A stretch of 64,000 nucleotides of DNA from assembly GCA_028716365.1 (NCBI GenBank), contig JAQUPZ010000001.1:473205-537204 (forward strand), given 5' to 3'. This DNA is from Kiritimatiellia bacterium. GTDB taxonomy: Bacteria; Verrucomicrobiota; Kiritimatiellia; UBA8416; YA12-FULL-48-11. Below the pieces are notes generated by a model, which searched no databases, had not been told where the DNA came from, and saw only the letters and a list, made by a program, of their open reading frames with translations. Both the position numbers and the translations under genes were made by a program. Positions 13,536-31,429 of this stretch are shown in pieces; position 1 is the first letter of the stretch, and every line of letters starts with the position of its first letter.

Positions 13536-14612
13536 ATGGCTAGAGTTTATAATTTCTGCGCAGGGCCAGCGGTTCTTCCTGAAGAAGCTCTTTTGGAAGC
13601 ACAAATGGAATTGCTGGATTTTAACGGGTCCGGTATGTCTGTTCTGGAATGTAGTCATCGCGGTAAAGAATATGCCGCTGTTCACGATGAATGTGTGGCC
13701 AATCTCAAGAAACTATTGAAAATTTCCGATGATTATGCCGTTTTATTTCTGCAGGGTGGTGCAAGCACCCAGTTTGCGATGGTGCCTATAAATCTTCTGG
13801 TAAACGGTCAGACTGCGGACTATCTCAATTCCGGTGCATGGGCATCCAAAGCCATCAAGGAAGCCAAATTGATCGGCAAGGTCAATGTTGCGGCAGACTG
13901 CGGCAAGGAAATTCCGACCAGGGTACCTTCTGAAAAAGAAATGAAGTTTACCCCAGGCGCTGCGTATGTGCACATTACATCGAACGAGACGATTTCCGGG
14001 GCACAGTACAAGTCATTTCCGAAGACTGAAGCTCCGCTGGTTGCTGATATGTCGTCTGATTTTCTTTCAAGGCCTTTTGACATGAACCAGTTCGGTCTTG
14101 TTTATGCCGGTGCGCAGAAGAATCTCGGTCCTGCCGGAGTGGCAGTGGTGATCATACGCAAGGACCTTGCGGGACGCGTTCCTGCGAACACGCCCACAAT
14201 GCTTAAGTACACAACGCACATAGAGAACAATTCCCTGTATAATACGCCGCCATGTTTTGCAATTTACATGATTAATCTGGTTACTCGCTGGATTCAAAAG
14301 ATGGGACTTGAAAATCTATACAAACAGAACCGCGCCAAGGCACAGAAGATCTACGATGTGCTGGACAGCAGCAAATTCTACAAAGCCACGGCTGTCAAAG
14401 AATGCCGGTCGGACATGAACGTTACGTTCCGTCTGCCCAGCGAGCAACTGGAAGAAATGTTCGTAAAGGAAGCCAGCCAGCAGAAGCTGAAGGGGCTCAA
14501 AGGTCACCGTTCTGTTGGCGGCATCCGTGCCTCCATTTACAATGCTTTTCCTCTCAAGGGAATAGATACTCTTGTTTCATTCATGAAGGAATTTGAGAAG
14601 AAGAACAGCTGA
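13536..14612 (+). CDS. serC: Phosphoserine aminotransferase
   Basis: YNFCAGPA, SHRGK, LQGGAS, DMSSD, GAQKN, YNTPP, GHRSVGGIRASIYNA. Confidence 0.97.
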   Translation: MARVYNFCAGPAVLPEEALLEAQMELLDFNGSGMSVLECSHRGKEYAAVHDECVANLKKLLKISDDYAVLFLQGGASTQFAMVPINLLVNGQTADYLNSGAWASKAIKEAKLIGKVNVAADCGKEIPTRVPSEKEMKFTPGAAYVHITSNETISGAQYKSFPKTEAPLVADMSSDFLSRPFDMNQFGLVYAGAQKNLGPAGVAVVIIRKDLAGRVPANTPTMLKYTTHIENNSLYNTPPCFAIYMINLVTRWIQKMGLENLYKQNRAKAQKIYDVLDSSKFYKATAVKECRSDMNVTFRLPSEQLEEMFVKEASQQKLKGLKGHRSVGGIRASIYNAFPLKGIDTLVSFMKEFEKKNS

Positions 14613-14620
14613 AGAAAAAA

Positions 14621-15191
14621 GAAACGGAGAGACGGAGCACCGGTGAAACGGTGACTATTGTAACGGAGTGGAGACGGGAGCCTTTGGGCGCGAGACTATG
14701 CGACAAGGTGACAGGGAGACTGTGTGGGGCGAAGTGACATGGCGAAATTGTGACTTGGAAACTGAGGTGGGAGAATAATTGGCAGAGAAGATAACCAATC
14801 ACAAGGATTTGCGTGTCTATCAGCAGGCTGTTGACGGAGCCATGGCCATTTTCCAATTGACCAAGAAGTTTCCGGTCGAGGAACGGTTTTCCATGGTTGA
14901 CCAGGTTAGACGTTCTTCTCGTTCTGTATGCGCCAATATAGGAGAGGCATGGAGGAAAAGACGGTACAGAGCGGCGTTTATTGCTAAACTTAATGATGCT
15001 GAAGGAGAGGCCTCAGAAACACAAATCTGGCTGGATTTAGCCAGGAGATGTTGTTATGTCTCTTCAAGTGAGGCAACCAGCTTGGAGAAAATCTATGACA
15101 ATATCATTGGTCAATTAGTTACCATGATTCGTCAAGTGGATAAATGGGTTATCGAAGAATCATGATCACAGAGTCTCCTTGTCACCTTGTC
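14621..15191. repeat. Octamer low-complexity repeats and a 20-bp inverted repeat bracketing the four-helix-bundle gene
   Basis: GAAACGGA/GAGACGGA/GCACCGGT/GAAACGGT at 14621-14652; GACAAGGTGACAGGGAGACT (14702-14721) pairs with AGTCTCCTTGTCACCTTGTC (15172-15191) with one mismatch. Confidence 0.75.
14779..15165 (+). CDS. Four-helix-bundle protein (23S rRNA IVS/TIGR02436-like)
   Basis: HKDLRVYQ, FPVEERF, QVRRSSRSVCANIGE, EASETQIWL; TTG start. Confidence 0.9.
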   Translation: MAEKITNHKDLRVYQQAVDGAMAIFQLTKKFPVEERFSMVDQVRRSSRSVCANIGEAWRKRRYRAAFIAKLNDAEGEASETQIWLDLARRCCYVSSSEATSLEKIYDNIIGQLVTMIRQVDKWVIEES

Positions 15192-15208
15192 TCAAATTCT
15201 CAGAAAGA

Positions 15209-15311
15209 GCGCCTGTAGCTCAATTGGACAGAGCCTGCCCTGTCGAATGATGGGGCGTCAGCCTCCGCCATGTCATTCGACATGGCGCCCTGCCGACTGA
15301 CAGGGCGGAGC
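15209..15311 (+). pseudogene. 5' 41 nt of tRNA-Arg(CCG) interrupted by three 20-22 nt hairpin insertions
   Basis: Removing inserts 15235-15256, 15268-15287 and 15288-15307 restores exactly GCGCCTGTAGCTCAATTGGACAGAGCGTCAGCCTCCGGAGC, identical to 15636-15676. Confidence 0.9.
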
Positions 15312-15317
15312 ATTAAA

Positions 15318-15590
15318 ATGAAATATTATTACGTTTACATATTATTGCTCTCCAATAATCAGCTCTATACCGGTTTCACCGCTGACTTGAGCGGTAGAAT
15401 TGCAGATCACAAGGACGGGAGAGTTAAATCAACACAATACCGCAGGCCGCTCGAGTTGATTCATGCGGAAAGTTACTGCCTTGAATCTGATGCCAGGCGC
15501 CGCGAAAAGTTTTTGAAAACAACGGAAGGAAAACACCTGCTTCGTCAGCAAATCAGGGATATCTTGCACTTGAAGGGTGTTATTGAGTAG
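15318..15590 (+). CDS. Stand-alone GIY-YIG nuclease
   Basis: YVYILL...YTG, conserved Arg (GRI) and Glu (RRE); the real start is probably 15318, not 15270. Confidence 0.9.
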   Translation: MKYYYVYILLLSNNQLYTGFTADLSGRIADHKDGRVKSTQYRRPLELIHAESYCLESDARRREKFLKTTEGKHLLRQQIRDILHLKGVIE

Positions 15591-15635
15591 ATTCTTTTCA
15601 CAAAGCAATATACTTTGTTCTCTTGATTTGTCCAT

Positions 15636-15712
15636 GCGCCTGTAGCTCAATTGGACAGAGCGTCAGCCTCCGGAGCTGAAGGTTATGAGTTCGAGCCTCA
15701 TCAGGCGCACCA
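15636..15712 (+). tRNA. tRNA-Arg(CCG)
   Basis: Acceptor GCGCCTG/CAGGCGC+ACCA; anticodon arm TCAGC-CTCCGGA-GCTGA; T arm ATGAG-TTCGAGC-CTCAT. Confidence 0.97.
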
Positions 15713-15720
15713 TTACCAAA

Positions 15721-15757
15721 AATGGGTAGGTTGTAATATGAACCTGCCCATTTTTTT
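15721..15757 (+). terminator. Rho-independent terminator after tRNA-Arg
   Basis: AATGGGTAGGTT/AACCTGCCCATT stem followed by a T-run. Confidence 0.8.
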
Positions 15758-15977
15758 CATGCTTTCCCTAACAATCCTACCAAATCTGGACACCAACCTA
15801 CCCAAAAATGGTAACTTAGAGGTTTATTAGGGTTTTTTGAGGACCGGATGATAGCCCGGATGATAAATGAGGGGGGATTAGGAAAAATAAGCCCCTATAT
15901 CCATTACGATTTGATTCTTGATGAAGCTGAGAATTGGTCTAAAAATCACACATACCATAAGGGCTATTTGGTTTTTT

Positions 15978-16841
15978 CTATGGTACAATGATTTTTCTTA
16001 CATTACTTCCTGCTGATTCGCCATATGAGTTTGTAGTGCTGACTCTGTACCAGTAGATTCCAGCGTCTAAAACAGTGTTGGTACAGCAAGTAATATTGGA
16101 TGTTGTAATGATGATATTACTGTAAGAGCTAGTGAGCTGATCCTTTCGATATACGACAAACGCCTGTTCGTTGTCACTATTGTCCGACCAAGTTAGAACA
16201 ACATCTCGTCCTGTAAATGTTAGATTAAGATCAGTGGGTTTTTTGGGAGGAAGGTTTTGTTTGTCTAGGACAATAAGATATGAGTAGTCAGTATATACGC
16301 CGCCGCCAATGGCGGTAAGCCGTATTCGGGTATCACTGAGTTTGTCGATAGTCCACGCGCGATATCCACTTCCTCCCTTGAATAAGGTTCCGGCTTGGAC
16401 ATTATAAATTTCGAAGAAGCCGGCGCTCGAATCGATCTCAAAAGGAGTTGGCGTGCAAGTGATACTCGGCGCCGCTGAATTCGTTATCCATACTTCGTTA
16501 GAGGAATCATAGGTAACGAAATAATCTGGCGAAAATGTCATCGTAACATTAGTAAGACAGACATACAGGCTGTTGGTACCATCCTGCCAGTCTGCGGTCT
16601 TGGGGTAACCACTCAATCCGTATGCAGTTCCTTTCCAAACCCCAATAATATTTTCCATACTGGGAGTATTTGCGGTACGTTGGATCTTGTCAAATAGCTC
16701 GTTGATCACGTCTGCGGAGATTACATCACTGGGCTTAATCCGATGTTCCGATTTGTAATCATCTGCGAATATATTTGTATCGATTAATATGGGCACCATA
16801 ATAATCTCCAGTAATATCAAGGAGTGTATATACTTGTTCAT
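15978..16841 (-). CDS. Secreted protein with C-terminal fibronectin type III domain
   Basis: PKKPTDL...LTWSDNSDNEQAFVVYR...YWYRVSTTNSYGES. Confidence 0.75.
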   Translation of the reverse strand: MNKYIHSLILLEIIMVPILIDTNIFADDYKSEHRIKPSDVISADVINELFDKIQRTANTPSMENIIGVWKGTAYGLSGYPKTADWQDGTNSLYVCLTNVTMTFSPDYFVTYDSSNEVWITNSAAPSITCTPTPFEIDSSAGFFEIYNVQAGTLFKGGSGYRAWTIDKLSDTRIRLTAIGGGVYTDYSYLIVLDKQNLPPKKPTDLNLTFTGRDVVLTWSDNSDNEQAFVVYRKDQLTSSYSNIIITTSNITCCTNTVLDAGIYWYRVSTTNSYGESAGSNVRKIIVP

Positions 16842-16855
16842 TTTATCCCCCTTTA

Positions 16856-17356
16856 CTATTCAAACACAGACATGTCAGCTGTAGCTTGCTCCGCCTCTTC
16901 ATTTACGATACACTGGATTCGGTAGAATTGAGTTACACTAAAGACCGTGCTGGTAATGCAACTAGAAGTCTGATGCCAAGTACCAGTACCGCCAGTAGCA
17001 TATACGAAACCTACTCGTTGTGCATTGGTTGCAAGAGATGTGATGGTGTTTGCACAAGTAACCTCGTATACTTTTCCGCTGATGCTTTGCCACTCAATAA
17101 TCGTATTTTCTTCCTGAACGGTAATGTTCGTTACGGCAAGAACACTCGTAGGATCGCCGGGATTTGTACCCGTAAGGGTCTCATCCCAATCTGTTAGACC
17201 ATCATTGTCATAATCTGTCACTGTTGCCGTCTCTATGATGTTTGTTTCCTCGGCAAAGAGGATGTAGGGCATTAATAACATCATCGCAAAAACGGTACCT
17301 AATCTACAAAGATATGAACATGTCTCTATGATTTGGAACTGTTTGCTTTCATTCAT
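16856..17356 (-). CDS. Secreted protein with DxDxDG (TSP3-like Ca-binding) motif and PVC-type Ig-like C-terminus
   Basis: DYDNDGLTDWDETLTGTNPGDPTS; IEWQSISGKVYEV...FYRI; start uncertain. Confidence 0.65.
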   Translation of the reverse strand: MNESKQFQIIETCSYLCRLGTVFAMMLLMPYILFAEETNIIETATVTDYDNDGLTDWDETLTGTNPGDPTSVLAVTNITVQEENTIIEWQSISGKVYEVTCANTITSLATNAQRVGFVYATGGTGTWHQTSSCITSTVFSVTQFYRIQCIVNEEAEQATADMSVFE

Positions 17357-17591
17357 GATAGGAAATAATCCACTATAAAGCAACTCATCTAGACATAACA
17401 AAGGTAAACCCACCAAATCGAGCTAGCATCTTTGATAATATACCCCTCCCGCATTTGTATGTTGCCAGAATACCAAGCGGGTTTCAAGATGTAATTCGTT
17501 ATATTGAAATTTCCAGCTTCCAAGGTAGGGTAGGGATGATTAGTTGATATCCTTCAGACGTTTTGTTAATATCCAAAAACTGGAGAGGAGT

Positions 17592-19928
17592 ATGAAGAAA
17601 TCTTTCCTTACTATCCTGTACGTTTTTCTGTCATTCTTCTTTGCTGTTAATGCCCAAGCCCAATCATTTTCCATTACCAACGCCTCTTTTGATGCTAATA
17701 TTATTTCGCTTTCTTGGGATAACGTAACGAACAGGTATATCGTCAGCCAGTCAACATCGCTTATTACGGGACAGTGGCAATATGTAGGTTGGGTACTTTC
17801 GACAAATGATTCAGTAATTACCAATACCTATGACAATTGTTTCTACAGAATAAGGAAAGTTTCTGTAGTTAATTTTGCCGATACGAATTTTGAGAAGGCT
17901 GTCAGAGATAATATAACAAATAAATTTATCCCGACAAATGAGGTTTACGATATTGATGTAAATGCCAGTACCAATCTAAGTGTTCCATTAAATTTGATTA
18001 TTAACGTATCTGGGTATGAGCAATTTACGGCACTCAGGAGTTTTGATTGTTCTCACAACCAATTGACTAATCTGGATGCCTCTGCGTGTGTAAGTCTGGC
18101 TACTTTGAACTGTGGTTATAATCAGTTAACTAATCTGAATGTTTCTGCCAATACCAATCTGACAACGCTATATTGTAGTTTTAGTAATTTTACAAATCTG
18201 AATGTTTCTGCCAATACCCTCCTGACGACGTTGGACTGTGCTTATAGCCTGCTTACCAGTCTTGATGTTTCGACTTGTACAAATTTAACAATCTTGAATT
18301 GCGAGATGAATAAATTAACCAATTTAAATGTTTCAACAAATGTTAAGCTATTTTGGATGGCATGTTCTCGCAATCTGTTAACTAATCTTGATATCTCTGC
18401 CTGCACAAATCTGATAACATTATACTGTTACAGCAATCAATTTACCAATTTTGATGTGTCTGCCAATACGAACCTGAAATATCTGTATTGTAACGACGAT
18501 AAATTGACTAATCTTGATTTGTTGGTTTGTACAAATTTGAAAACACTATATTGTCACAGTAACCAACTGTTTAATCTTAATGTTTCTACAAATGTGAAAC
18601 TGACAGAATTGTCCTGCTCCTACAATCCGTTAACCAATTTGAATGTTTCTGCCAATACAAGCCTGACAAATTTGTACTGTTCCCACAATCAGTTAACTAA
18701 TCTGAATATCTCTGCAAATTTAAAACTGCAATCTCTGAGCTGTGACCAAAACCAACTGACCAATCTTATTATTTCTGCTTATACGAACCTGCAATATCTG
18801 TATTGTTATAGTAATAAATTAACCGAATTGAACGTCTCCGGTTGTACAAATTTGTCTATTCTGTCTTGTTATACTAATTCTCTGACGAATCTCGATGTAA
18901 CTGGTTGCACAAATCTGACTGAATTACGTTGTAATAATAATCCACTGACCAACCTCGACATGGCAGGCTTCACAAATCTAAACAAAGTGTACTGTAATAA
19001 TAATCAGCTTATTAACCTCAATGTGAATGGTTGTACAAATCTGTACTGGATGTACTGTAATAATAATCTGTTGACCAACTTCAGCGTGGCAGGTTGTACA
19101 AATCTGAACAGGTTATACTGTTATGCTAATTCTATGACGAATCTCAATGTGACGGGTTGTACAAATTTGACCGATATACGCTGTTATAATAATCAGCTGA
19201 CCAATCTCGATGTGGCTAGTTATACAAAGCTGATCACGTTGTATTGTTATAATAATAAATTGACGAATCTCGATGTAACTGGTTGCACAAATCTATATAC
19301 ACTGGAATGTAATAATAATCAGCTGACCAACCTCAATGTGGCTGGTTACACAAAGCTATACACTTTACGCTGTCATACTAATCATTTGACGAATCTCGAT
19401 GTGGCAGGTTGTACAAATCTAAGTACACTGGAATGTTATAATAATCCGTTAACTAACCTAAGTATTATGGCTGGATACACAAATCTGTACTGGTTGAACT
19501 GTTATAATAATCAGCTGACCAACCTCAATGTAACGAATTGTACAAGGTTGAGTAATTTGTACTGTTATAATAATCAATTAGCGAATCTCGATGTGGTAGG
19601 TTGTACAAATCTGACCGATTTACGCTGTTATAATAATCAGCTGACCAACCTCAACGTGGCGAATTGTATAAAACTTCGCAATTTGTATTGTTATAACAAC
19701 CAGCTGACTAATCTTAATATGTCAGTAAATACAAACTTGATGGAATTGAGGTGTTACAGCAATCAAATGGACAATCTCAACCTGTCTGTCAACACCAACC
19801 TCACATATGTTGACGCTAGATGGTGTTCTTTACTCACGAATATAACTGTATGGTGGTCTACTCCAACTAACATTCCCGGCGGCGTAACTCTTTTATATAA
19901 CGGCAGTACAACGCTTAGTTATCCATAA
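17592..19928 (+). CDS. Secreted Cys-containing leucine-rich-repeat protein (internalin-like cap)
   Basis: SD GAGAGGAG; signal peptide ending AQA; cap FADTNFEKAVR; about 28 repeats of ~21 aa (LTNLDVxGCTNLxxLxCxNNQ). Confidence 0.9.
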   Translation: MKKSFLTILYVFLSFFFAVNAQAQSFSITNASFDANIISLSWDNVTNRYIVSQSTSLITGQWQYVGWVLSTNDSVITNTYDNCFYRIRKVSVVNFADTNFEKAVRDNITNKFIPTNEVYDIDVNASTNLSVPLNLIINVSGYEQFTALRSFDCSHNQLTNLDASACVSLATLNCGYNQLTNLNVSANTNLTTLYCSFSNFTNLNVSANTLLTTLDCAYSLLTSLDVSTCTNLTILNCEMNKLTNLNVSTNVKLFWMACSRNLLTNLDISACTNLITLYCYSNQFTNFDVSANTNLKYLYCNDDKLTNLDLLVCTNLKTLYCHSNQLFNLNVSTNVKLTELSCSYNPLTNLNVSANTSLTNLYCSHNQLTNLNISANLKLQSLSCDQNQLTNLIISAYTNLQYLYCYSNKLTELNVSGCTNLSILSCYTNSLTNLDVTGCTNLTELRCNNNPLTNLDMAGFTNLNKVYCNNNQLINLNVNGCTNLYWMYCNNNLLTNFSVAGCTNLNRLYCYANSMTNLNVTGCTNLTDIRCYNNQLTNLDVASYTKLITLYCYNNKLTNLDVTGCTNLYTLECNNNQLTNLNVAGYTKLYTLRCHTNHLTNLDVAGCTNLSTLECYNNPLTNLSIMAGYTNLYWLNCYNNQLTNLNVTNCTRLSNLYCYNNQLANLDVVGCTNLTDLRCYNNQLTNLNVANCIKLRNLYCYNNQLTNLNMSVNTNLMELRCYSNQMDNLNLSVNTNLTYVDARWCSLLTNITVWWSTPTNIPGGVTLLYNGSTTLSYP

Positions 19929-20069
19929 TAAGGATCTACTGTATTCCTTTATGATGTTGGCGTTCTTCTCCTTTCTCTCAATGGGCAAGTAGCAATTTCT
20001 AACGGCATTTTCTAATTGGCGATTCTAACAATATTTAACGGCAGGCAATCAGGGCATTTAAGGGCATAC

Positions 20070-20116
20070 TTGAGTTTCTAATAATGGCGGAGTAGAATGG
20101 AAAACAGTGGGAGGGG
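20070..20116 (+). promoter_or_regulatory. Module B copy: sigma70-like promoter plus SD
   Basis: TTGAGT-N17-TAGAAT then AGTGGGAGGGG before the TTG start at 20123. Confidence 0.7.
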
Positions 20117-20122
20117 ATTATT

Positions 20123-21025
20123 TTGAACATCATCACTACAGCAGATGGTCAATATTACCGCCGCTGGGTAAACATCATACCTTCTTTATTTATTCCGGGA
20201 TCAGGGCACTTTCTCTCAGGTAGGAAAAAAGCTGGAATTATCTGGTTTTGTTTCGCTCTTCTACTTGGGGATAGGATGCTTTGGATCTTCTTATCTACAA
20301 AAATACCTTCATTGCCATACTCAACGATTTGTTACTGGATAGTCGCCCTTGTTTTTAGTCTGGTTGTTATGGCGGATTCATGTCGTTGTCCTATTCCGAA
20401 AATAGGTTTCAAAGGTTGGTTCGTATTTTCCGGTATATTTATTGTGACATCTTTTGTGCCTGTTTTTCTTGTCCATCAATTTCTAGTTCACCCATTCACG
20501 ATATCTTCAATGTCAATGTCTCCTACTTTTATTGGGGCAAAAAGGGATGCAAAAGGGAAACAATTGAGTAGGGGTGATTATGTTCTTGTTAATAAATTAA
20601 TTTACTATTTCAAAAATCCACAGCGAGGTGACATTGCAGTATTTAACATTTCCGGTGTTCAAGGACTTCAAAAGAATAAATATTTCTGTATGAGAATTGT
20701 TGGAATTCCCGGTGATACAGTAAGAATCAATCCGCCTTATATAATTGTAAATGGACAGAAACTTCTAGAGCCACCGATATTTGCAAAGATTTCTTCGAGA
20801 GAAAATGGTTATTCGGGATATTTATTTCCGCAGGCTTACAACAAAGCTTTTTATGAAACACCGAAAGATGGTATTCGCCTTTTTGATAATGAGTATTTGG
20901 TTTTTGGAGATAACGCCACGAATAGTTACGATAGTCGGTATTTTGGGGCAATTAAACGAAGCAGTATTATCGGTAAAGTTTTCTATATCTATGCTCCTGC
21001 TGAAAGAAAAGGGAGAGTGGAATAA
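20123..21025 (+). CDS. Signal peptidase I paralog with extra N-terminal membrane domain; catalytic Lys replaced by Met
   Basis: FTISSMSMSPT (box B), GDYVLVNK, RGDIAVF, YFCMRIVGIPGD (box D), GDNATNSYDSRYFG (box E). Confidence 0.85.
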   Translation: MNIITTADGQYYRRWVNIIPSLFIPGSGHFLSGRKKAGIIWFCFALLLGDRMLWIFLSTKIPSLPYSTICYWIVALVFSLVVMADSCRCPIPKIGFKGWFVFSGIFIVTSFVPVFLVHQFLVHPFTISSMSMSPTFIGAKRDAKGKQLSRGDYVLVNKLIYYFKNPQRGDIAVFNISGVQGLQKNKYFCMRIVGIPGDTVRINPPYIIVNGQKLLEPPIFAKISSRENGYSGYLFPQAYNKAFYETPKDGIRLFDNEYLVFGDNATNSYDSRYFGAIKRSSIIGKVFYIYAPAERKGRVE

Positions 21026-21119
21026 TTTCATTTCAGGTAAGGCTATAATAAGAAACAAATTAATGAACGCCCCTAACCAAAATTTAGAATGGCATTCGGT
21101 AAGGTGGCAGGAGAAATAA

Positions 21120-22022
21120 ATGAAAAAAACACTATTAATTATGTTCTTGTTCGCTCTCAGTATAGCAGAAGTAATACAAGCGGGTTCACCAGAGAAGAAA
21201 TGGGTCAAAGAACTACGAGAAAAACTGGAGTCTGATGGTTCTGTGTTGCTTTACTGGGAGTGCGACCATGGATGGAGGGATTGCAACTGCGGAGGTAATT
21301 ACTATATACCAGCAACTCGGAAGCAAATCTCCGACTCTCCCGTTTGGAACACTAACTCGCTCTTACCACCATTGTCGTTAGAAAAGGCGATTACGATTGC
21401 ACAGGCGGAACTGAAGCAGAAGAATCCGGACTATGACCAGTTTCGTTTATCTCAGGCATCTCTCTCTTTAATCAGTGGTATAGGAATTAACAGGGAGAAA
21501 TGGTGGTATTTCTTTAACTACCATGGAACTTCTCAAATTCGCCATGATAGATCGTTTCTTATATGTGTATTAATGGATGGCACTGCTCTTAAGCCTTGTA
21601 TTGTTGAACATAATCTCAAGACGTGGACTGATAAGGATAAGGTATTGCACGGTAAAATGACAGCTAAGGAAGATGATGCAATACGAAAAGATATCGAAAA
21701 GAGACTAGCTGCTATCATTGTCCCTGAGATCGACTTCAGGCAGGCTAATATTTTCGATGTTGTTGATGATTACAATCACTGTGTCGCTGAATATGGCACC
21801 GGAGCGGAAAAGAAAGAAGAAACACGACTTCAGATTAGACTTCACGAATCCGCTATAATCCAATCCTGTCCTCCATATGCTTTACCTATAGATGCTCCAC
21901 TTCTTGCGTTCTCTTGCAAGGATGTGTCGCTATTGGAAGTCCTGAAGATTACGGTAAATGTTTTACAGCTCAAAATGCACATGGAGGGGAATGTTGTCAC
22001 TCTGTATAATCCAAAGAATTGA
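21120..22022 (+). CDS. Secreted hypothetical protein with C-terminal secretin-N/STN-like domain
   Basis: Signal peptide; IIVPEIDFRQANIFDVV...DVSLLEVLKI...MEGNVVTL. Confidence 0.65.
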   Translation: MKKTLLIMFLFALSIAEVIQAGSPEKKWVKELREKLESDGSVLLYWECDHGWRDCNCGGNYYIPATRKQISDSPVWNTNSLLPPLSLEKAITIAQAELKQKNPDYDQFRLSQASLSLISGIGINREKWWYFFNYHGTSQIRHDRSFLICVLMDGTALKPCIVEHNLKTWTDKDKVLHGKMTAKEDDAIRKDIEKRLAAIIVPEIDFRQANIFDVVDDYNHCVAEYGTGAEKKEETRLQIRLHESAIIQSCPPYALPIDAPLLAFSCKDVSLLEVLKITVNVLQLKMHMEGNVVTLYNPKN

Positions 22023-22067
22023 CTCAAGTTCAACGGCGATTCAATGGGCGTAGTGAAGGATTAAAAG

Positions 22068-22517
22068 ATGAAACCACTAGATGCCACATTGATAGATGCA
22101 ACAAAGCCAAGCAAATGGGAAATTAGGTTTGAGAAGATTCCTGTTCTTGGTCGGATCTTCGAGTATGCCATGTATCAAGATAGAATCAGACCCATCGTTA
22201 AAGACATCAAGAAACAACTTAAAGAACGAGAGGGAATTGATGTTCGATCTTACTGGAATAATGACGACTGGCACATTGCATCCAAGTTGTTCAAGATTAT
22301 CAGTGAAACAATAGAATGGAAACCCTCTATGTTTATCCCTGATGATCCCTGTCGCATAGTATTTTGGGCATATCTTGATTGCCTTGATGCCGTTGATGCA
22401 CAGGAAATGATTGAGGACGAATTCAAATTCAAGTTTTCCGAGGAGGAGATAAAACTTACAAATAATTTCACAATGAAGGAACTCGTAGAATTGATTAAAT
22501 GGAAATCAAACCAGTAA
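22068..22517 (+). CDS. Hypothetical protein with ACP-like C-terminus
   Basis: LDCLDAVDAQEMIEDEFKFKFSEEE...TMKELVELI. Confidence 0.6.
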   Translation: MKPLDATLIDATKPSKWEIRFEKIPVLGRIFEYAMYQDRIRPIVKDIKKQLKEREGIDVRSYWNNDDWHIASKLFKIISETIEWKPSMFIPDDPCRIVFWAYLDCLDAVDAQEMIEDEFKFKFSEEEIKLTNNFTMKELVELIKWKSNQ

Positions 22518-22672
22518 TCGCCCTCTTCCTCGCCCTCTCAATTACACTTCAATACCCCGCTTTAATGTTTCCTAAAAGGCTTGGTAATACGCCGTTAAGT
22601 TGCCCGGTTAGAATTCATCCTTGTTTTTGTGCTGTTCTCTAGTTAATATCTAGCCACAATACTGGAGGACTT

Positions 22673-23845
22673 ATGAGGAAGCTGATTTCTGTTATGGTCT
22701 TAATCTTCTCGCTTTCTATTACCCATTTATCCATTGCTCAAGAAAACAACAAGAATGCAGAATTTGCTAATGCCCAAAAGATTTATCAGGAACAGTCTCT
22801 TGCGATTTCGCTAACCTACGCCGCTAAATCCAAGACTATTTTGGCTGAATACGCAAAAGAGCTGGATACCCTTGAACAGGTAATAGCGAAAAAAGCCGAT
22901 CTTAAAGGTGTTATGGCGGTTAGACAGGAGGAGGCTGATGTAAAATTAGCAAATGGCATTCCAGATAACGTTACTGACCAGACTCCAGTAGAACTGAAGG
23001 CTTTGAAAGAAAAATACAAAGGAATTATGGCAACAGTAGAATCTGACAAGAAGAAGGATCTTGCAAAACTGGCGACTCTATACATTGGTAGACTTAAGAC
23101 AATACAGGATACTTTGACCAAGAACTTAAAGATTGATGATGCCTTGGTGGTCAATAATGAGATAGCACAGGTTAAAGGAAGTATAGATTTGAAGACAAAC
23201 GAAATAGTTGGTGCTTCCAGTCAGATGACTCCTCAGAGTGCTGTTAAACCCGAAGAAAAGAAACCTGCTTCTCCTCCTGCGAACGCTCTAGTGGCAGGCG
23301 AAGGGAAGACTATCGTAACAGTGAATTCATCGATTGCGGGGAAGAAGTCACCACTGGAAGATGCTCTTGTCGTCATTTGCGATGCCGGTTTGAACTCGAC
23401 TGTTGCTCTGGGTCCCACGGGACAGGATGGAAAGGTGCAGCTCGATGTCAATGCCAAGACAAGGTATGACTTGATTGCGTTCCACAAGGAATACAAATTC
23501 CTGAGAGAGAAAAACATTCGTTTTTCAAAACCATTGGAGTTAACAATGTATCCGCTGCCCAAGGGGCAGTTGATGGGTGTCGTTGATCGTTCAGGTCTGT
23601 CCATATTTGACGAAGCAGAGAAGGATATACAAATCGGAACTACTTATGGCGAACACACCTCGTGCGACTTTCGTTGCATGAACAATGAGTGTTTGATTGG
23701 GTACGACAGACCGACGCTTACAATCATTGAAAGGTGCAGTCCCGGTCAGTCTTTCTTCATGAAGAAGGGAAAGAGGCGGGCAAAGTGTGATGTTCTATGT
23801 AGTCTGCCCTCCGGATTTGTAATCCAATATAAAGTTTCTCCGTAA
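22673..23845 (+). CDS. Secreted coiled-coil hypothetical protein
   Basis: SD GGAGG; signal peptide ending SIA; helical N-half and beta-rich C-half. Confidence 0.75.
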   Translation: MRKLISVMVLIFSLSITHLSIAQENNKNAEFANAQKIYQEQSLAISLTYAAKSKTILAEYAKELDTLEQVIAKKADLKGVMAVRQEEADVKLANGIPDNVTDQTPVELKALKEKYKGIMATVESDKKKDLAKLATLYIGRLKTIQDTLTKNLKIDDALVVNNEIAQVKGSIDLKTNEIVGASSQMTPQSAVKPEEKKPASPPANALVAGEGKTIVTVNSSIAGKKSPLEDALVVICDAGLNSTVALGPTGQDGKVQLDVNAKTRYDLIAFHKEYKFLREKNIRFSKPLELTMYPLPKGQLMGVVDRSGLSIFDEAEKDIQIGTTYGEHTSCDFRCMNNECLIGYDRPTLTIIERCSPGQSFFMKKGKRRAKCDVLCSLPSGFVIQYKVSP

Positions 23846-23995
23846 ATGGTAACTTAATGGTCTCTCTAAACCATTTCCCTAAACCGCCCCTCTTAGTCTT
23901 CCGAAGTAAATAGTTTCCCGCCCACATTACTCTACAAATTGTTATAACTTCTTGTAGTTGTTCAAAACGCAATTCTCCCTGCACTCTAACAACCC

Positions 23996-24041
23996 TTGAA
24001 TTTGGCTAATTGGCGGAGTAAGATGGGAAGAGTGGGAGGGG
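23996..24041 (+). promoter_or_regulatory. Module B variant: promoter plus SD
   Basis: TTGAAT-N17-TAAGAT, AGTGGGAGGGG, ATG at 24046. Confidence 0.65.
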
Positions 24042-24045
24042 AGTA

Positions 24046-24642
24046 ATGGATGTGATATTTACATTAGGATTTTGCGTTTTTCTTATTCTCCTTGTAATTC
24101 TCGCTTGGATTATGTTGAAAAAGGCGAAGTTCTATTTTTCCACTTCCAAATATTTCCCTGCATTTGTTTGTGGCGTTTTAGGGATGGTCTGTCTTGTGCT
24201 ACCCATTATTTTGCTCCTTGCTCCTGTTTGCATTACAGATGGCCATAGGTCAAACAGAACACAATGTATGAGTAATATACGCCAAATAGGAATATCGCTG
24301 TCTATGTATTCAGTGGATCATAACGAGCGATATCCTCAAGATTTACAGACTCTTGCTATAACAATGAAACTACCACCACGATTATTTATCTGTCCTTCGA
24401 GCAAACATATCGCAGGTTCTCTTTCGAATTTGAACGAATGGACTGATTACGTTTATATTTGTGATTCCAGTCCAACAAATGATCCAAACATGCCCATTGT
24501 TTTTGAGTTTCCAGCAAATCATAACGGTAAAGGAGGTAATGTTTTGTTAAATGACGGTTCAGTTTTTTGGCTAAATACTAAAGAATTCCGTAAGAGCATT
24601 CAGAAGCAATTACTTAATGACAATATGACGAAGAAGAAATGA
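24046..24642 (+). CDS. Prepilin-like DUF1559/H-X9-DG protein with N-terminal 2-TM module
   Basis: CMSNIRQIGISLSMYSVDHNERYP; NHNGKGGNVLLNDGSV. Confidence 0.8.
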   Translation: MDVIFTLGFCVFLILLVILAWIMLKKAKFYFSTSKYFPAFVCGVLGMVCLVLPIILLLAPVCITDGHRSNRTQCMSNIRQIGISLSMYSVDHNERYPQDLQTLAITMKLPPRLFICPSSKHIAGSLSNLNEWTDYVYICDSSPTNDPNMPIVFEFPANHNGKGGNVLLNDGSVFWLNTKEFRKSIQKQLLNDNMTKKK

Positions 24643-24670
24643 AAATGAACGCCCCTGAGCAAAATTTAAA

Positions 24671-25126
24671 ATGGCATTGGGTAAGGTGGATAAAAGCAGG
24701 TTTACCATGATTCGTTACCGTCATATTTTAACGTTGTCCCTGTTGTCTCTTTGTGTAGGCTGTTATTGGAATCTAGGTTGGTTCATGGCATTACAGTTCA
24801 TTGGTCTCATATGTCCAGTTGTAATTCCTATTCTTGTTGTGTGTCTTTTCCCGAAAATGTCATTTGGATTAATAGTCGGCACTTATGCTGTGATAGTTCT
24901 GATTACAACAGGCATCCGCAACTTTCTCTATGTTCTGTATGGTAATGGCTTAAACTATCTGTTGCACGACAGTGAAACACAGTTAGTTGTTATAGTATTG
25001 GCTGTCGAACAACTTATCCTTGGAATCATTACAATTGGAATCCTGACGCTATTAAGACGACGCAGAGCAATTTCCTCTAATCTTCGTCCCCCTCCGAATC
25101 GTCCCATCAATAACCCAAAGAATTAG
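24671..25126 (+). CDS. Hypothetical multi-pass membrane protein
   Basis: Four hydrophobic segments; the annotated ATG lies inside module C and 24708 is an alternative start. Confidence 0.6.
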   Translation: MALGKVDKSRFTMIRYRHILTLSLLSLCVGCYWNLGWFMALQFIGLICPVVIPILVVCLFPKMSFGLIVGTYAVIVLITTGIRNFLYVLYGNGLNYLLHDSETQLVVIVLAVEQLILGIITIGILTLLRRRRAISSNLRPPPNRPINNPKN

Positions 25127-25327
25127 GTCATCTTAACGCCATCTTCGGGCATTTGTTGGGCATTCTAAAACGGCACTCTCAATGGGCGTATTAGCATTTT
25201 CTCATCGGGCATTCTAAAATCAATTAGTATGGGCATTCTTAACGATTTCTTATTGGCGATTCTAACATTTAACGCAGGCAAGAAGGGCATTTAAGGGCAC
25301 TTGAGTTTTGAGAGGGGGAAGGATAAG

Positions 25328-25579
25328 ATGAGGAGAGTGAAGAAGAAAACAAAGAAAGTAAATATTCCTAGAAAACTTAGTCTTGTTCGCTTTAATGCTA
25401 CAGGACTGAACAAGAAAATGCTTAAAAAATATCCATTTAAAAAAGATGATACATATATTTTTTTAGGTGAGATTCCAAATATGGCTGGACATGTAGTTGT
25501 GTTAGATATCAAGAAACATAAGATTTATTCAGGTTATCATATTGAAAACTTTGTCGAACTTGCAGACGACAGCTTATGA
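25328..25579 (+). CDS. Small basic hypothetical protein
   Basis: ORF follows module B; YIFLGEIPNMAGHVVV...GYHIENFVEL. Confidence 0.6.
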   Translation: MRRVKKKTKKVNIPRKLSLVRFNATGLNKKMLKKYPFKKDDTYIFLGEIPNMAGHVVVLDIKKHKIYSGYHIENFVELADDSL

Positions 25580-25923
25580 ACATTCTTCTTTTCGTTGCAG
25601 TTTTAGTGTCTGTAGTTGTTTTAATATGGGCAGTTAGGATTTCATGGAAGAAAAGAGAAGAAGTTGTTAAAGCCCAAAAACCCAAACAAGTCCTGAAGTT
25701 CTTTGCGATTATCTTGTTTGTCATCGGCTGTGTAAATCTTTTTATGTCTATCAGAGAGGCTCAAGAGATTTGTGCCTTTGTAAATGGTTTTGATACCAAG
25801 AAAGTAATGTTCAGTAATTACTTATCTTCAGAGTTAACAACATTCCTAATTCCTGTTGTTGTATCAGGCGTTATGTATCTGCTTTCGTTAACTATGCCTT
25901 GGAATCGGAAAATAAAAGAATAA
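25576..25923 (+). CDS. Hypothetical membrane protein
   Basis: ATGA coupling to the upstream ORF; three hydrophobic segments. Confidence 0.65.
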   Translation: MNILLFVAVLVSVVVLIWAVRISWKKREEVVKAQKPKQVLKFFAIILFVIGCVNLFMSIREAQEICAFVNGFDTKKVMFSNYLSSELTTFLIPVVVSGVMYLLSLTMPWNRKIKE

Positions 25924-26031
25924 CGTCTTCCCTTCTCCCATTTCTCCCCCGCATTCTGAAATCAATTAGCAGGGCATTTAACGTCCCTCTCATTGGGCAA
26001 GTAGTATTTCTAGATGGCAGGGGAGAGGGGT

Positions 26032-27036
26032 TTATTTCTTATTATAAATTGGGTTTGCTATAAAATTCTTAGCGGCTTGTTTTGCGGTTTCAATCTGAGC
26101 AGGCAACAATTTCTTTTCTAATACTCGCCCTTTTTCTACAGCTTGGTCGATTCCATTCGTACCAGCAATTAAAAACCATTTATATGCTTCAATATTATCT
26201 TCTATTATACCGAGTCCATTAACATAGCAAAGTCCTAGGTTGTATTGAGCCGTTGCATATCCCTGTTCGGCAGATTTACGAAACCATTTAATAGCTTCTA
26301 CCAGATCTTTTTCTACACCTTTACCATTGGCATAGCAAAACCCCAAACTGCACTGAGCCTCTGCATTCCCTTGCTCGGCAGATTGTTGAAACCACTTAAT
26401 TGCTTTTACATAGTTAGTTTCTATACCTTTTCCGCTGTAATAACATAATCCCACGAAGTACTGAGCAAGTGCGTTTCCCTGTTTAGCAGCCTTGAGATAC
26501 CACTTAACGGCTTCTACATGATTCGTTTCTACACCTTGCCCGTCATAGTAACATGATGCCATACTCAACTGAGCATATGCATTTCCTTGTAGAGCAGCTT
26601 TTTGATACCATTTAACGCCTTCAACAAAATCTTTCTCAACACCTTCACCGTAGGAATAGCAAAATCCTAGACTGAACTGAGCCTCTGACAATCCCTGTTC
26701 AGCAGCCCTTCTGTACCACTTAACCGCCTCTAGTAAATCCTTCCCCAGACCCTCACCTTTTTTGTAACACCCCCCTATGTTATATTGAGCCTGAGCCAAC
26801 CCTTGTTCAGCGGATTTTTTGTACCACTTAACGGCTTCAACCAAATTTTTTTCAACACCCTTACCATTGTCGTAGCAACACCCCAGTTCGAATTGTGCCT
26901 TTACGTCGCCTCCAATAGCTTTGGCTTTAGTTTGTTCAAAAGTGGCTTCATCTGAAAGTTTTGGTGAAACACATCCAGTAATTATCGCACAACACGCTGC
27001 AATAATACCGATGCTCAATGTTGATGTTATTTTCAT
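26032..27036 (-). CDS. Sel1-like repeat lipoprotein
   Basis: Lipobox IITGC; seven AQxxLGxCYxxGxGVEKD repeats. Confidence 0.92.
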   Translation of the reverse strand: MKITSTLSIGIIAACCAIITGCVSPKLSDEATFEQTKAKAIGGDVKAQFELGCCYDNGKGVEKNLVEAVKWYKKSAEQGLAQAQYNIGGCYKKGEGLGKDLLEAVKWYRRAAEQGLSEAQFSLGFCYSYGEGVEKDFVEGVKWYQKAALQGNAYAQLSMASCYYDGQGVETNHVEAVKWYLKAAKQGNALAQYFVGLCYYSGKGIETNYVKAIKWFQQSAEQGNAEAQCSLGFCYANGKGVEKDLVEAIKWFRKSAEQGYATAQYNLGLCYVNGLGIIEDNIEAYKWFLIAGTNGIDQAVEKGRVLEKKLLPAQIETAKQAAKNFIANPIYNKK

Positions 27037-27097
27037 CTACTTCAACTCTACCACGCCCATTTTCCTAGGCAATTCTAAACGGGCATTCTAACGGCAC

Positions 27098-27125
27098 TTG
27101 AGTTTCATTCAGTAAAGGTTATGAT
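27098..27125 (+). promoter_or_regulatory. Module B promoter
   Basis: TTGAGT-N16-TATGAT, then GGAGGG and ATG at 27146. Confidence 0.6.
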
Positions 27126-27145
27126 GCTGGCAACTGGAGGGTAAT

Positions 27146-27619
27146 GTGTTTTGTACGGGGAAATCTATTCTTGTTATTTTTCTGTCCCCACTCCTTGTCG
27201 TCGCTTGGATAATGCTGAAAAATGCCATATTCTACTTTTCCCGTTCTAAGCATTTGCCTGCCTTTGCTTGTGGGGTTGTTGGTGTTGCCTGCCTTGTCTT
27301 GCTTATTATGGCGATTTTTAGTGAAAGAACTCGTTACACTCAAAGCGATCCGATACCAAAGACGAGAACCGCATTCCGCACAGCTCATGCTGCCATTGTT
27401 GTATACCGCCATGAGTACGGAATATACCCAAAATCATTTCAGGATATGACAAGGGATAAAAATCAAAAACATATCACATTTTTAAATGATTTATCGGATC
27501 TGCAAGACGCTTGGGGACAATGCATTCGATATACTACAAATTCAAGGGGGTTCGAATTGAGATCATCAGGAAGAGATAAAACATTCGACACACTAGATGA
27601 TATAGTCGAGAAATACTGA
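27146..27619 (+). CDS. Pseudopilin GspG-like protein with N-terminal 2-TM module
   Basis: YRHEYGIYP...DAWGQCIRY...FELRSSGRDKTFDTLDDI. Confidence 0.75.
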   Translation: MFCTGKSILVIFLSPLLVVAWIMLKNAIFYFSRSKHLPAFACGVVGVACLVLLIMAIFSERTRYTQSDPIPKTRTAFRTAHAAIVVYRHEYGIYPKSFQDMTRDKNQKHITFLNDLSDLQDAWGQCIRYTTNSRGFELRSSGRDKTFDTLDDIVEKY

Positions 27620-27747
27620 GAAAAGCACTAATCGCCATTATGAACGTCCTTCTATAAATACCCTCATCGCCCATTTCTTCCTCTCCCTCTCATTGGGCGG
27701 GTAGCATTTCTAAGTATCTCAAGAGGAGAATCGTTTAAGCAGTAGAT

Positions 27748-28224
27748 ATGAATGTTCAGCATCTTGTATTGCCTTTGGTCATATGCTTGTTGGTCTACTT
27801 GATTTTAATCGGCGGTACGAATTGGCTTTCACGACCTATACGACGAATGCTTATTCTTTTATACGTTTTTCTACACATTGCGAGCTGGGGACTAATGCAT
27901 TCCATTGTGTTCATCCAATTTAGGAACGAAATACGCTCACTACACAACGATGCTTTGTCTAATATAAAACGAGGTGTAATAGAAGACGAACCACCGTGTT
28001 TACCAGTGCATAATTCTGACCAAAAGTATACTAACGAATGGATACAGGTGAATCCAATTCCTCGGTACAACGTCTTAAGCATCGCTCCCATTCCGTTTAT
28101 TCTTATTGCGAATGAGAGCTTCCAGTTAGGTATTGATTGGAAAATGGAAGAGACAGCGACGTATGTATTTACGGGTATTTCAGTCGAACAAGTGATGGCA
28201 GAATGGGACTGGAAGTGTTTTTAG
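27748..28224 (+). CDS. Hypothetical membrane protein
   Basis: Two N-terminal hydrophobic helices; bounded by modules. Confidence 0.6.
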   Translation: MNVQHLVLPLVICLLVYLILIGGTNWLSRPIRRMLILLYVFLHIASWGLMHSIVFIQFRNEIRSLHNDALSNIKRGVIEDEPPCLPVHNSDQKYTNEWIQVNPIPRYNVLSIAPIPFILIANESFQLGIDWKMEETATYVFTGISVEQVMAEWDWKCF

Positions 28225-28324
28225 TCTTTGCCGTTATTGTAACAGGAAGCAAATCACCCTCCTCCTTAAACATCCCCCCTCGTCGGCGTATTATTTCTAA
28301 ACGGGCATTCTTAAAAGGGCATAC

Positions 28325-28368
28325 TTGAGTTTCTAATTATGGCGGAGTAGAATGAGGAAAGTGGGAGG
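28325..28368 (+). promoter_or_regulatory. Module B copy: promoter plus SD
   Basis: TTGAGT-N17-TAGAAT, AGTGGGAGG, ATG at 28372. Confidence 0.7.
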
Positions 28369-28371
28369 CGT

Positions 28372-29244: not shown

Positions 29245-29317
29245 TATAGCCCCCCCTCAACGCCGATTCAAAGTGGTCGGTAAGTGGGGGAATGTTCGAA
29301 TTTAGAAAGGAAGGATC

Positions 29318-29890
29318 ATGAAATATTCTATGATGATATGTCTTGTGAGCATGGCGGTATTGACATTTATTGTACTTGCTGATTCTGAGGATTCTGCCGA
29401 TGTTCATGGGGCAATTGGAATCCAGAGAGGAACGCTTGTTGCCGAAGTCAGTGCTCTACAATCTCTCCGTAAAGGAAATACTTCTGAGGCTATTGAAACG
29501 CTAGAACGACACTCTTACGTCACGGCAGTCATCTTACTTGAAAACCCTGTGTGGAAAACAGATTTAGCAGTTCAAATGTTCGCTGTGGAATTAAAACATT
29601 ATCGGAAACAACATGCACAACCGGAATCGAAATGGACAGTTACAGAAAAACGTCTTGAAGAATTACTCAAGGAACTGAAGGAAGGCAATCGCACAATTAT
29701 TCCAACGGGAGCTGTTATCGTTAAACAAGATTCCAAATGTTTATATTACAAGAAACAGTGTCGTTCATGTAGTTTTTTGTCAGAGCAACAGATTGGAACA
29801 ACGCTTCCCAAGGGCATGGCAACAATCAGTTCAGACTTTACATGTCCAAAATGCGGGAAGAAACAAGACGTTAGAATAGACATCAAATAA
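29318..29890 (+). CDS. Secreted hypothetical protein with C-terminal Zn-ribbon
   Basis: Signal peptide; CRSC...CPKC. Confidence 0.65.
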   Translation: MKYSMMICLVSMAVLTFIVLADSEDSADVHGAIGIQRGTLVAEVSALQSLRKGNTSEAIETLERHSYVTAVILLENPVWKTDLAVQMFAVELKHYRKQHAQPESKWTVTEKRLEELLKELKEGNRTIIPTGAVIVKQDSKCLYYKKQCRSCSFLSEQQIGTTLPKGMATISSDFTCPKCGKKQDVRIDIK

Positions 29891-29896
29891 CATTAA

Positions 29897-30601: not shown

Positions 30602-30704
30602 TAAAGCTAACGTCCCTCTCATTGGGCAAGTAGCATTTCTAATTGGTGGGTTTAGATGTTCTTCCATTCTTTCCCTGCATTTCAATTTCTGTTAATCTCT
30701 TTAC

Positions 30705-31385: not shown

Positions 31386-31429
31386 TTGGCGTATTAGTAT
31401 TTCTCATTGGGCAATTTCTAACGGCATAC

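Follow-up and report, generated by a model that had tools for sequence, protein, structure and literature searches.

A paired-hairpin junction module in a tRNA-associated cassette that carries a UPF0213/Slx1-like GIY-YIG nuclease gene

The locus described here lies in a 64,000-nt stretch of a Kiritimatiellia genome (contig JAQUPZ010000001.1; 'the window' below, always the whole stretch). It comprises a partial tRNA-Arg(CCG) copy, a pair of short hairpins, the gene of a small GIY-YIG nuclease and an intact tRNA-Arg(CCG) gene, an arrangement which, with its relatives by the tRNA genes of hundreds of uncultured bacteria, is called a cassette. Its closest described counterparts are REPIN/RAYT systems, insertions in rRNA genes of the Candidate Phyla Radiation (CPR) and free-standing GIY-YIG homing genes. 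REPINs (PMC3116915; PMC3733652) are imperfect palindromes of 20-40 nt, mostly head-to-head doublets and often heterodimers with different stems; their copies are mostly non-autonomous, the repeat flanks a single small enzyme gene, and in-frame insertions in protein-coding genes occur occasionally. The cassette is alike in all these respects. However, REP and REPIN sequences carry a conserved unpaired GTAG or CGTC tag at one end (PMC3733652), whereas the cassette consensus has neither. The flanked gene is GIY-YIG and not Y1/HUH in the window and in 80 further loci (whole genomes were not searched for RAYTs), at most about ten cassette copies per genome were seen, compared with tens to thousands of dispersed REPINs, and cassettes sit almost exclusively at CG dinucleotides of tRNA loops, coupled to partial duplication of the tRNA. 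By analogy, the cassette appears to work most like a REPIN/RAYT system, yet the tag and the Y1 transposase that define that family are missing from it.

The nearest published phenomenon is that of CPR rRNA genes, in which insertions other than introns encode GIY-YIG or 23S_rRNA_IVP proteins and are located at the tops or bases of stem-loops (PMC11270868). Host lineages are the same, the same two protein families stand side by side in the window, and in both cases stem-loop tops or bases of structured-RNA genes are concerned. The rRNA insertions nevertheless lie within the rRNA and are tolerated or removed after transcription, whereas the cassette keeps the tRNA intact by partial duplication, and a defined hairpin pair marks its junction; tRNA is unmentioned in that report. 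SegB-type homing genes (PMC2330249) also combine a GIY-YIG domain with the position of a selfish gene by tRNA genes, and a 2-nt staggered cut would fit the CG boundaries of the cassette. The differences are that the cassette nuclease has 90 amino acids, no DNA-binding domain and Slx1 as its closest fold, and that the cassette has a conserved hairpin module and a partial target duplication, the intact target persisting.

Integron cassettes consist of a promoter-less open reading frame (ORF) and a folded palindromic site, in fixed orientation within a transcription unit. The present cassette resembles them in these features and resembles tRNA-targeting islands in that the tRNA is kept intact while a partial tRNA repeat remains, but it has no integrase, its repeat may be the 5′ part of the tRNA, and its breakpoint is in a loop and not in a 3′ identity block. 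The small dispersed repeats of cyanobacteria, reportedly described by Elhai et al. in 2008, are said to be 21-27-nt hairpin-forming insertions in otherwise conserved sequences; they are similar as hairpin insertions and differ in sequence and host phyla, and we know of no tRNA-loop specificity or linked nuclease gene for them. No description of the tRNA cassette or its hairpins was found in the full-text literature, a scope outside which most subscription-journal papers fall, and the cassette is apparently undescribed. We regard it as a novel form of such elements, and there is a substantial chance that it makes up a class of its own.

In the window, the upstream copy (15209-15311) corresponds to nt 1-40 of tRNA-Arg(CCG), broken by three clean insertions of 22, 20 and 20 nt; apart from these the match is exact, and the intact gene lies 427 nt downstream. 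The features are the following.

15209-15234, + strand: pseudo-tRNA arm, part 1; 26/26 identical to 15636-15661, i.e. nt 1-26 of tRNA-Arg(CCG)
15235-15256, + strand: single 22-nt hairpin insertion, CTGCCCTGTCGAATGATGGGGC; placement ambiguous by 1 nt
15257-15267, + strand: pseudo-tRNA arm, part 2; 5′ strand of the anticodon stem and loop through the anticodon CCG
15268-15287, no strand assigned: hairpin 1 of the pair, CCATGTCATTCGACATGG plus CG; CCATGTC-ATTC-GACATGG, 7-bp stem and ATNC tetraloop
15288-15307, no strand assigned: hairpin 2 of the pair, CCCTGCCGACTGACAGGG plus CG; CCCTGCC-GACT-GACAGGG, inverted relative to hairpin 1
15308-15311, + strand: short arm GAGC, equal to tRNA nt 37-40, where tRNA homology stops
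15318-15590, + strand: stand-alone gene of the 90-amino-acid GIY-YIG nuclease, UPF0213/Slx1-like, starting 10 nt past the pair
15591-15635, + strand: spacer between the nuclease gene and the intact tRNA
15636-15712, + strand: intact tRNA-Arg(CCG) (ARAGORN; Rfam tRNA, 70 bits), co-oriented with the cassette

A preliminary description, made from the letters of the window, had read the two 20-nt units behind the CCG anticodon as tandem hairpins with related loops on opposite strands, and this holds: relative to the intact tRNA they are true CG-bounded insertions, each made up of an 18-nt hairpin (stem 7 bp, loop 4 nt) and a closing CG, and the second points the opposite way. The stem of hairpin 1 is perfect. 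Hairpin 2 has one C.A mismatch on the + strand; its loop, GACT, is atypical of the family consensus GNAT. The third copy that it placed at 15235-15256 is indeed an insertion, though of 22 nt and not 20; its loop reads GAAT on the + strand, and the - strand carries its CAG tail. Beyond it the repeat resumes (15255-15267 identical to 15660-15672). The intact tRNA-Arg retains the CG site, CTCCGGAG. The same locus sequence was recovered in a landfill-metagenome NCBI metagenome-assembled genome (MAG) and in Logan contigs of two runs; thus it is no assembly artefact.

We are highly confident that the object is a conserved, structurally constrained hairpin pair at the junction of a cassette tied to tRNA and UPF0213 genes, with or without the ORF, the presence and copy number of which vary. 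That the pair is the boundary module of a small mobile cassette within tRNA transcription units is well supported, the evidence being a pattern-first search, the structure of the pair, the anatomy of the loci and a protein-first test.

For the first, a 40-nt pair pattern with 25 specified bases was run on species-representative genomes (596 Gb), in which about 1e-3 matches are expected by chance according to our estimate. It matched 88 stretches (98 pairs) in other genomes, while a search of the window with the stem pattern and both loops gave no further hairpin copy, pattern counts being at chance level. Most matches are in CPR/Patescibacteria, others in Omnitrophota, Lentisphaerae, Kiritimatiellae, Verrucomicrobiota, Planctomycetota, some Gammaproteobacteria-labelled MAGs and one archaeal MAG; viral contigs yielded none, and phage and plasmid records contain distant yazA-like homologues only. 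The richest MAG seen has about 9-10 pair sites. Nearly all matched pairs adjoin a tRNA gene (many isoacceptors are represented) and are flanked by pieces of that same tRNA. The flank logo, GGRTTCG^pair^AAYCC, is that of the T-loop, and CG occupies positions -2/-1 of the pair in 86-87 of 92 sites. Typed sites (n=94) fall in the T-loop (79), the anticodon loop (14) or the D-loop (1), so that the anticodon, first thought to be the target, is a minority choice; the anticodon loops used contain CG (Arg-CCG, Arg-UCG, Ser-CGA).

The extent of this family bears on the possibility that the window hairpins are chance palindromes, an assembly artefact, or debris of an integrase island or group I intron in a tRNA. 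tRNA genes are common integration sites, and a low-GC stretch follows the tRNA-Arg gene. Against this, independent assemblies agree, the pair pattern matches 88 stretches elsewhere, and there is no integrase beside the cassette, no intron model match and no tRNA 3′-end repeat in the window; the probability left to this explanation is negligible. A permissive Rfam search (E<=1) of 14500-16000 for known ribozymes, introns and small RNAs gave tRNA alone. Two specific forms were considered and discarded: a group I intron with a GIY-YIG ORF, as no Rfam intron core is present and a complete tRNA, not a 3′ exon, follows; and an integrase-type tRNA island, as there is no integrase ORF beside the cassette and no second tRNA 3′ end in the window.

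The structure of the module was analyzed on 80 distinct pairs with 500 column shuffles. The two-hairpin model is 98.4% paired, and cells with changes on both sides number 151, versus 39.9+-6.1 in the shuffles (0/500 reach 151); the signal is lost when partners are slid, and a single long hairpin does no better than shuffles. Covariation thus supports two separate hairpins over one long palindrome, and a 48-nt single palindrome made of the pair and the palindromic anticodon loop CTCCGGAG was rejected since covariation does not back it. Loop positions left unspecified in the search pattern are nearly invariant, giving the consensus CG-CCNNGTC-ATNC-GACNNGG-CG. Both hairpins of a pair share one stem sequence in no more than 2/80 cases, which suggests that a perfect long palindrome is avoided. 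T-arm mimicry by the hairpin loops (TCGAAT) was also rejected, the A58-equivalent position varying freely. The order is always hairpin 1 (loop ATNC) then hairpin 2 (loop GNAT), in 99 cases with 0 other arrangements in the same loci; the hairpins do belong to a family, as first proposed, and it is large, but its unit is an obligate head-to-head pair.

Lone mismatches, read on the tRNA-sense strand, are A.C in 16 cases and G.T in 11, and since G.T is not in excess the hairpin structure looks like a DNA-level feature of both strands. This concerns an RNA-level explanation, in which the pair would be a stabiliser or processing signal, 5′ or 3′, of the nuclease mRNA, or else part of a tRNA-like decoy or antitoxin RNA restraining a tRNA-cleaving GIY-YIG toxin in the manner of type III toxin-antitoxin systems. 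The strict co-orientation of cassette and tRNA agrees with it, as does the position of the pair, 9-20 nt ahead of the start codon in many Type I loci and at the stop codon in Type II (both types are defined below). The published case of a prokaryotic TrmH tRNA methylase that bears an Slx1-like domain as a fusion (PMC1564403) and a terminator-like use of a hairpin with a T-run in one locus (L133) can also be cited in its favor. Yet mismatches compatible with G.U are not in excess of A.C on the sense strand, the module is two-fold symmetric and alike on both strands, it may precede or follow the ORF, copies without an ORF spread alone, and 14500-16000 has no Rfam match other than tRNA; such a role is very unlikely.

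The anatomy of the cassettes follows two plans, each the mirror image of the other. In Type I (53 distinct sites, the window included), tRNA nt 1 to the loop CG is followed by the pair, 3-7 nt, the optional ORF, a spacer and the intact tRNA; in Type II (41 sites), the intact tRNA is followed by the optional ORF, 5-12 nt of tRNA preceding the CG, the pair, and the tRNA from the CG to its 3′ end. Identity between partial and intact copies ends 0-2 nt from the tRNA end in 25/33 Type I and 27/39 Type II non-array loci, and the partial copy stops 3-12 nt past the pair in all cases. The short arms agree with the local tRNA, variable T-loop and stem positions included. Among the typed sites, none has two long arms or a pair within a full-length tRNA copy, and the intact tRNA keeps GGTTCGA in most loci. 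Pair and tRNA are separated by distances that show two modes, about 253-417 nt where the ORF is present and 7-124 nt where it is missing, which implies that ORF-less miniature versions are common.

Some loci show additional features. In L107, the same pair with a leader of roughly 30 nt occurs at 1402-1441 and 1766-1805; the first copy lies ahead of the ORF, and the second, which has no tRNA arm on its left, separates the ORF from the intact tRNA. In L158 (about 640-1216), tandem pseudo-tRNA-Met units follow an intact tRNA-Met, and a single hairpin, TCCCGTCATGTGACGGGA, replaces the anticodon arm. Upstream of the ORF in L133, a tRNA 3′ end is followed by the same loop motif as AGCCGGTCATTCGACCGGCT and a T-run, an arrangement resembling an intrinsic terminator.

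Relatives of the window cassette were taken from other metagenomes by their nuclease homologues, 73-83% identical. They share the window layout, at tRNA-Arg(CCG) or tRNA-Arg(UCG): a partial 5′ tRNA copy, two hairpins past the anticodon CG, 3-7 tRNA nt, the ORF and the intact tRNA. The pair has the same position in every relative examined, while its stems vary by locus with complementarity kept (CCATG/CATGG, CCCTG/CAGGG, CCCCG/CGGGG, CCCTATC/GATAGGG), and every pseudo-tRNA arm examined, those of 76-83% nuclease relatives included, ends in a hairpin pair, canonical or variant. Single hairpins behave differently: they form a 22-23-nt subtype with a CAG(G) tail, to which the 22-nt window copy belongs, and were seen in pseudo-arms only. 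That of the window is absent, with a 22-nt gap at 15233, from an 88%-similar groundwater contig (run X6), and another run's contig holds it ungapped. In one relative (L098) its site holds a different single hairpin, in another (L179) there is one 2 nt away, and the 22-nt subtype of the window recurs in L025, L049, L082 and L127. A further locus (L005) has the serC-tRNA synteny of the window, but neither the 22-nt hairpin nor the upstream IVP gene. We infer that single extra hairpins such as the 22-nt copy are secondary insertions or losses in a dispensable arm. The X6 relative and a solo pair in a dnaE-like gene, described below, agree with the mobility first proposed.

These observations can be set against the model of the preliminary description, namely independent 20-nt palindromes that enter CG dinucleotides with CG duplication and pile up in a dead tRNA copy. 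Single hairpins do vary in position and orientation in pseudo-arms and differ between close relatives, arrays of four to five hairpins exist in L173 and L177, and all units are CG-bounded. However, the 99 hairpin 1-hairpin 2 pairs against 0 other arrangements, the constant site in the window relatives and the distinct subtype of the single hairpins are not expected from it. Pair and truncation are also coupled, because the partial tRNA copy always ends 3-12 nt past the pair; with every examined pseudo-arm ending in a pair and none in a full-length copy, accumulation by decay has to be abandoned. Duplication of a CG target cannot be separated from a CG borne by the unit itself, since pairs without a 5′ CG (L092, L012:555) still end in CG. 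This model is accordingly given a low probability, and the pair is retained as the unit.

The protein-first test relied on 80 metagenome loci ascertained by the GIY-YIG protein alone. A tRNA lies within 150 nt in 74/80, every time on the same strand as the nuclease gene, and canonical hairpins are found in about 63/80, on the far side of the ORF from the tRNA in most loci, which bears out the link to the adjacent GIY-YIG gene suspected from the window. Two adjacent perfect 7-bp hairpins occur in 45/80 loci versus 0/459 control segments. Most of the loci without canonical hairpins contain pairs that vary in sequence but keep the design, such as CCCCGAG-ATAAA-CTCGGGG CG CCACGGG-TTTAT-CCCGTGG CG. 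A second pair family, with 5-nt loops ATAAA / TTTAT and different stems (L140, L142, L153, L154, L166), fills the same CG-bounded position in Ser-tRNA cassettes. In L173 and L177, arrays of four or five hairpins (e.g. CCAGGGG-TTAAT-CCCCTGG) replace the single pair, 170 nt upstream of the GIY-YIG ORF. The annotated nuclease ORF of some Type II loci (P0051, P0055) runs into the pair and thereby acquires a common ...TGRPVE tail.

The window nuclease matches Pfam PF01541 (GIY-YIG; E 4.5e-12) and no NCBIfam model. Its PDB sequence matches are the UPF0213 entries 1ywl (E 5.9e-7) and 1zg2 (E 7.3e-7). In the AlphaFold2 model (pLDDT 94), the whole 90-amino-acid protein is the nuclease core, a single domain, and neither Pfam nor the model reveals an extra DNA-binding domain. 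The ten best Foldseek matches are 1zg2, 1ywl and, after them, Slx1 entries (probability 1.0; TMq 0.49-0.66, and 0.55-0.66 for the Slx1 nuclease domains). The protein therefore agrees in sequence and fold with UPF0213 (YhbQ/YazA; 1ywl, 1zg2) and the Slx1 domain, whereas yazA-type genes of cultured Firmicutes are <45% identical to it, and Slx1 has a RING domain and needs Slx4, neither of which the cassette nuclease has. Across 34 sequences, Y7, Y17, G19, H31 and E63 never vary, and at least 90% of the sequences have R27; the catalytic roles of these residues are putative. UPF0213 structures were solved in 2005, and to our knowledge the family has no known function. Slx1 itself cuts branched and stem-loop DNA in a structure-selective manner, with which the titles of 6seh and 7cq2 agree.

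Several observations indicate, at the level of sequence comparison, that the cassette has been mobile: ORF-less copies, genome-specific variants, arrays, a solo pair and the X6 relative without the 22-nt hairpin. Genome-specific pair variants are found at several different tRNAs in several genomes; in MAG021 an identical 40-mer occupies at least 9 sites by Ser, Pro, Lys and other tRNAs, and in BP7.bin63 CCAGG/CCCAG stems occur at Thr, Gly and Val tRNAs. MAG021 also contains nested or truncated pairs broken within hairpin loops, and foreign spacers common to different loci. Tandem arrays are present in L080 (three 394-nt units), L086, L011 and L012. The solo pair (L037, a Giovannonibacteria MAG, about 2217-2256) is in frame within a 1087-amino-acid DnaE-like ORF, where it sits at AAATTCG^AAAC and adds about 14 residues (AQSSDVAPGRMTGR) ahead of the C-terminal part; no tRNA, duplication or nuclease gene lies nearby. 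Nuclease identity is 60-80% across phyla, and nearest neighbours in the nuclease family share the anticodon in 38/111 cases (chance 9%) and the amino acid in 68/111 (chance 27%), so that nuclease lineages are partly faithful to one tRNA, switching mostly among isoacceptors.

On these data, a mechanism can be proposed. The hairpin pair would be a miniature, non-autonomous insertion module comparable to a REPIN, and the UPF0213/Slx1-like nuclease would be its mobilising enzyme, comparable to a RAYT. The enzyme would be structure-selective and act on DNA stem-loops with YCG^R in the loop. Candidate substrates are tRNA-gene DNA of the T-arm, anticodon-arm or D-arm in single-stranded or extruded form, as well as the hairpins of the element itself, which contain TTCGA/TCGAA. 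Since the short arm preserves 2-4 bp of the tRNA stem, the pair and this remnant would together make up a three-way junction, a typical substrate of Slx1-type enzymes. Given that tRNA genes are essential, an insertion would survive only where an intact tRNA was left or recreated beside the interrupted partial copy, which is proposed to explain the constant architecture; and read-through with the tRNA would provide for expression of the promoter-less ORF, which is proposed to explain the strict co-orientation. No sigma-70-like promoter was found on the + strand of the spacer 15591-15635, a scan that is uninformative for this phylum.

Taken as a whole, identity and mechanism together, a REPIN/RAYT-like cassette driven by a structure-selective GIY-YIG nuclease is the reading towards which we incline, as somewhat probable. 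Mobilisation of the pair by a structure-selective nuclease, considered by itself, is put forward tentatively and by analogy. A new prokaryotic class of mobile element, with an Slx1-like GIY-YIG 'transposase' that reads DNA shape and not long sequence, a two-hairpin end forming a three-way junction, and insertion coupled to precise partial tRNA duplication, is a serious possibility that falls somewhat short of an even chance.

Several points weigh against this proposal. The neighbouring intact tRNA and nearly all other tRNA genes of the genome keep the target TTCGA; an unrestrained TTCGA nuclease would be self-destructive, and structure selectivity is therefore a necessary assumption and not a result. 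The proposal contains no account of how the partial duplicate (bounded by the tRNA end and by the CG plus 3-12 nt) arises, nor of why intact tRNA genes with TTCGA loops are spared. The window has one cassette, without dispersed copies. In two protein-first loci (L156, L160), the nuclease gene lies between two different intact tRNAs, without hairpins or a partial copy. Finally, the partial tracking of tRNA identity by nuclease lineages also fits homology-dependent homing.

Classical free-standing homing would have the GIY-YIG enzyme cut a cassette-free double-stranded tRNA allele at the loop CG, with repair from the occupied allele; the partial and intact tRNAs would then be homology arms, and the pair would merely destroy the recognition site in a redundant copy. 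Besides the tracking of tRNA identity, this explanation accounts for the GIY-YIG domain and for arm boundaries at the tRNA ends, as expected if donor and recipient conserve the tRNA only, and it has a precedent in T4 SegB, which is encoded in a tRNA gene cluster, homes as a GIY-YIG enzyme and produces 3′ ends of 2 nt (PMC2330249). But the protein is a 90-amino-acid catalytic domain only, without a DNA-binding domain and with Slx1, not I-TevI, as its closest fold; the site persists in the intact tRNA beside the cassette; identical pairs lie by non-homologous tRNAs in one genome with arms matching each, where chimeric tRNAs would be expected; and the conserved, covarying two-hairpin structure is left without reason. 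Homing of this kind is thus considered unlikely, although less so than the independent palindromes or the RNA-level roles. Two related schemes were rejected: an element-borne tRNA segment with homology-driven homing, which fits the arm boundaries but not identical pairs at unrelated tRNAs with locally matching arms; and a large element with pairs on both sides and its own tRNA, as the window has neither a tRNA-Arg 3′ repeat nor a second pair and most loci are one-sided.

The surroundings of the window cassette contain further features. Upstream, a 128-amino-acid 23S_rRNA_IVP / four-helix-bundle ORF (14779-15165) stops short of the pseudo-tRNA and is bracketed by inverted repeats of 35 nt, 86% complementary (14692-14726 / 15167-15201). 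This IVP-bearing stretch (14692-15201) ends 8 nt before nt 1 of the pseudo-tRNA and, because the syntenic relative L005 (serC then pseudo-tRNA) is without it, has the appearance of an independent insertion at the edge of the tRNA. The interval from serC to the IVP ORF contains, within 14642-14755, a 15-nt direct repeat in three copies (GGTGAAACGGTGACT and two others at 80%), and the 5′ part of hairpin 1 has an exact complement in TGACATGGCG at 14735-14744. Directly after the tRNA-Arg, over about 16000-36000, GC content drops to 0.38-0.41 (vs 0.47-0.51); this stretch contains a 794-amino-acid leucine-rich-repeat ORF and other ORFs without a Pfam match, and no island boundary was found after the tRNA-Arg, the 3′ end of which is not repeated anywhere in the window. 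In two other loci (L180, L181), a PhdYeFM/ParE toxin-antitoxin pair lies downstream of a cassette-bearing tRNA-Arg(UCG).

For annotation, the cassette accounts for recurrent truncated tRNAs and for small ORFs labelled 'GIY-YIG nuclease family protein' by tRNAs in MAGs of CPR/Patescibacteria, Omnitrophota and the Planctomycetes-Verrucomicrobia-Chlamydiae (PVC) group. Another connection is to the GIY-YIG and IVP insertions of CPR rRNA genes, for which there is no explanation so far. As a possible reagent, a nuclease of very small size with structure-plus-CG specificity could be of use. A miniature-palindrome system run by a GIY-YIG nuclease and not by a Y1 transposase would be a different kind of mobile element, the target of which would be set by the loops of essential structured-RNA genes. 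The nuclease is constantly partnered with one defined DNA structure and target, from which a biochemical hypothesis for UPF0213 follows directly; if true, it would provide a first function for this family, and many of the truncated tRNA copies of CPR and PVC genomes would be accounted for.

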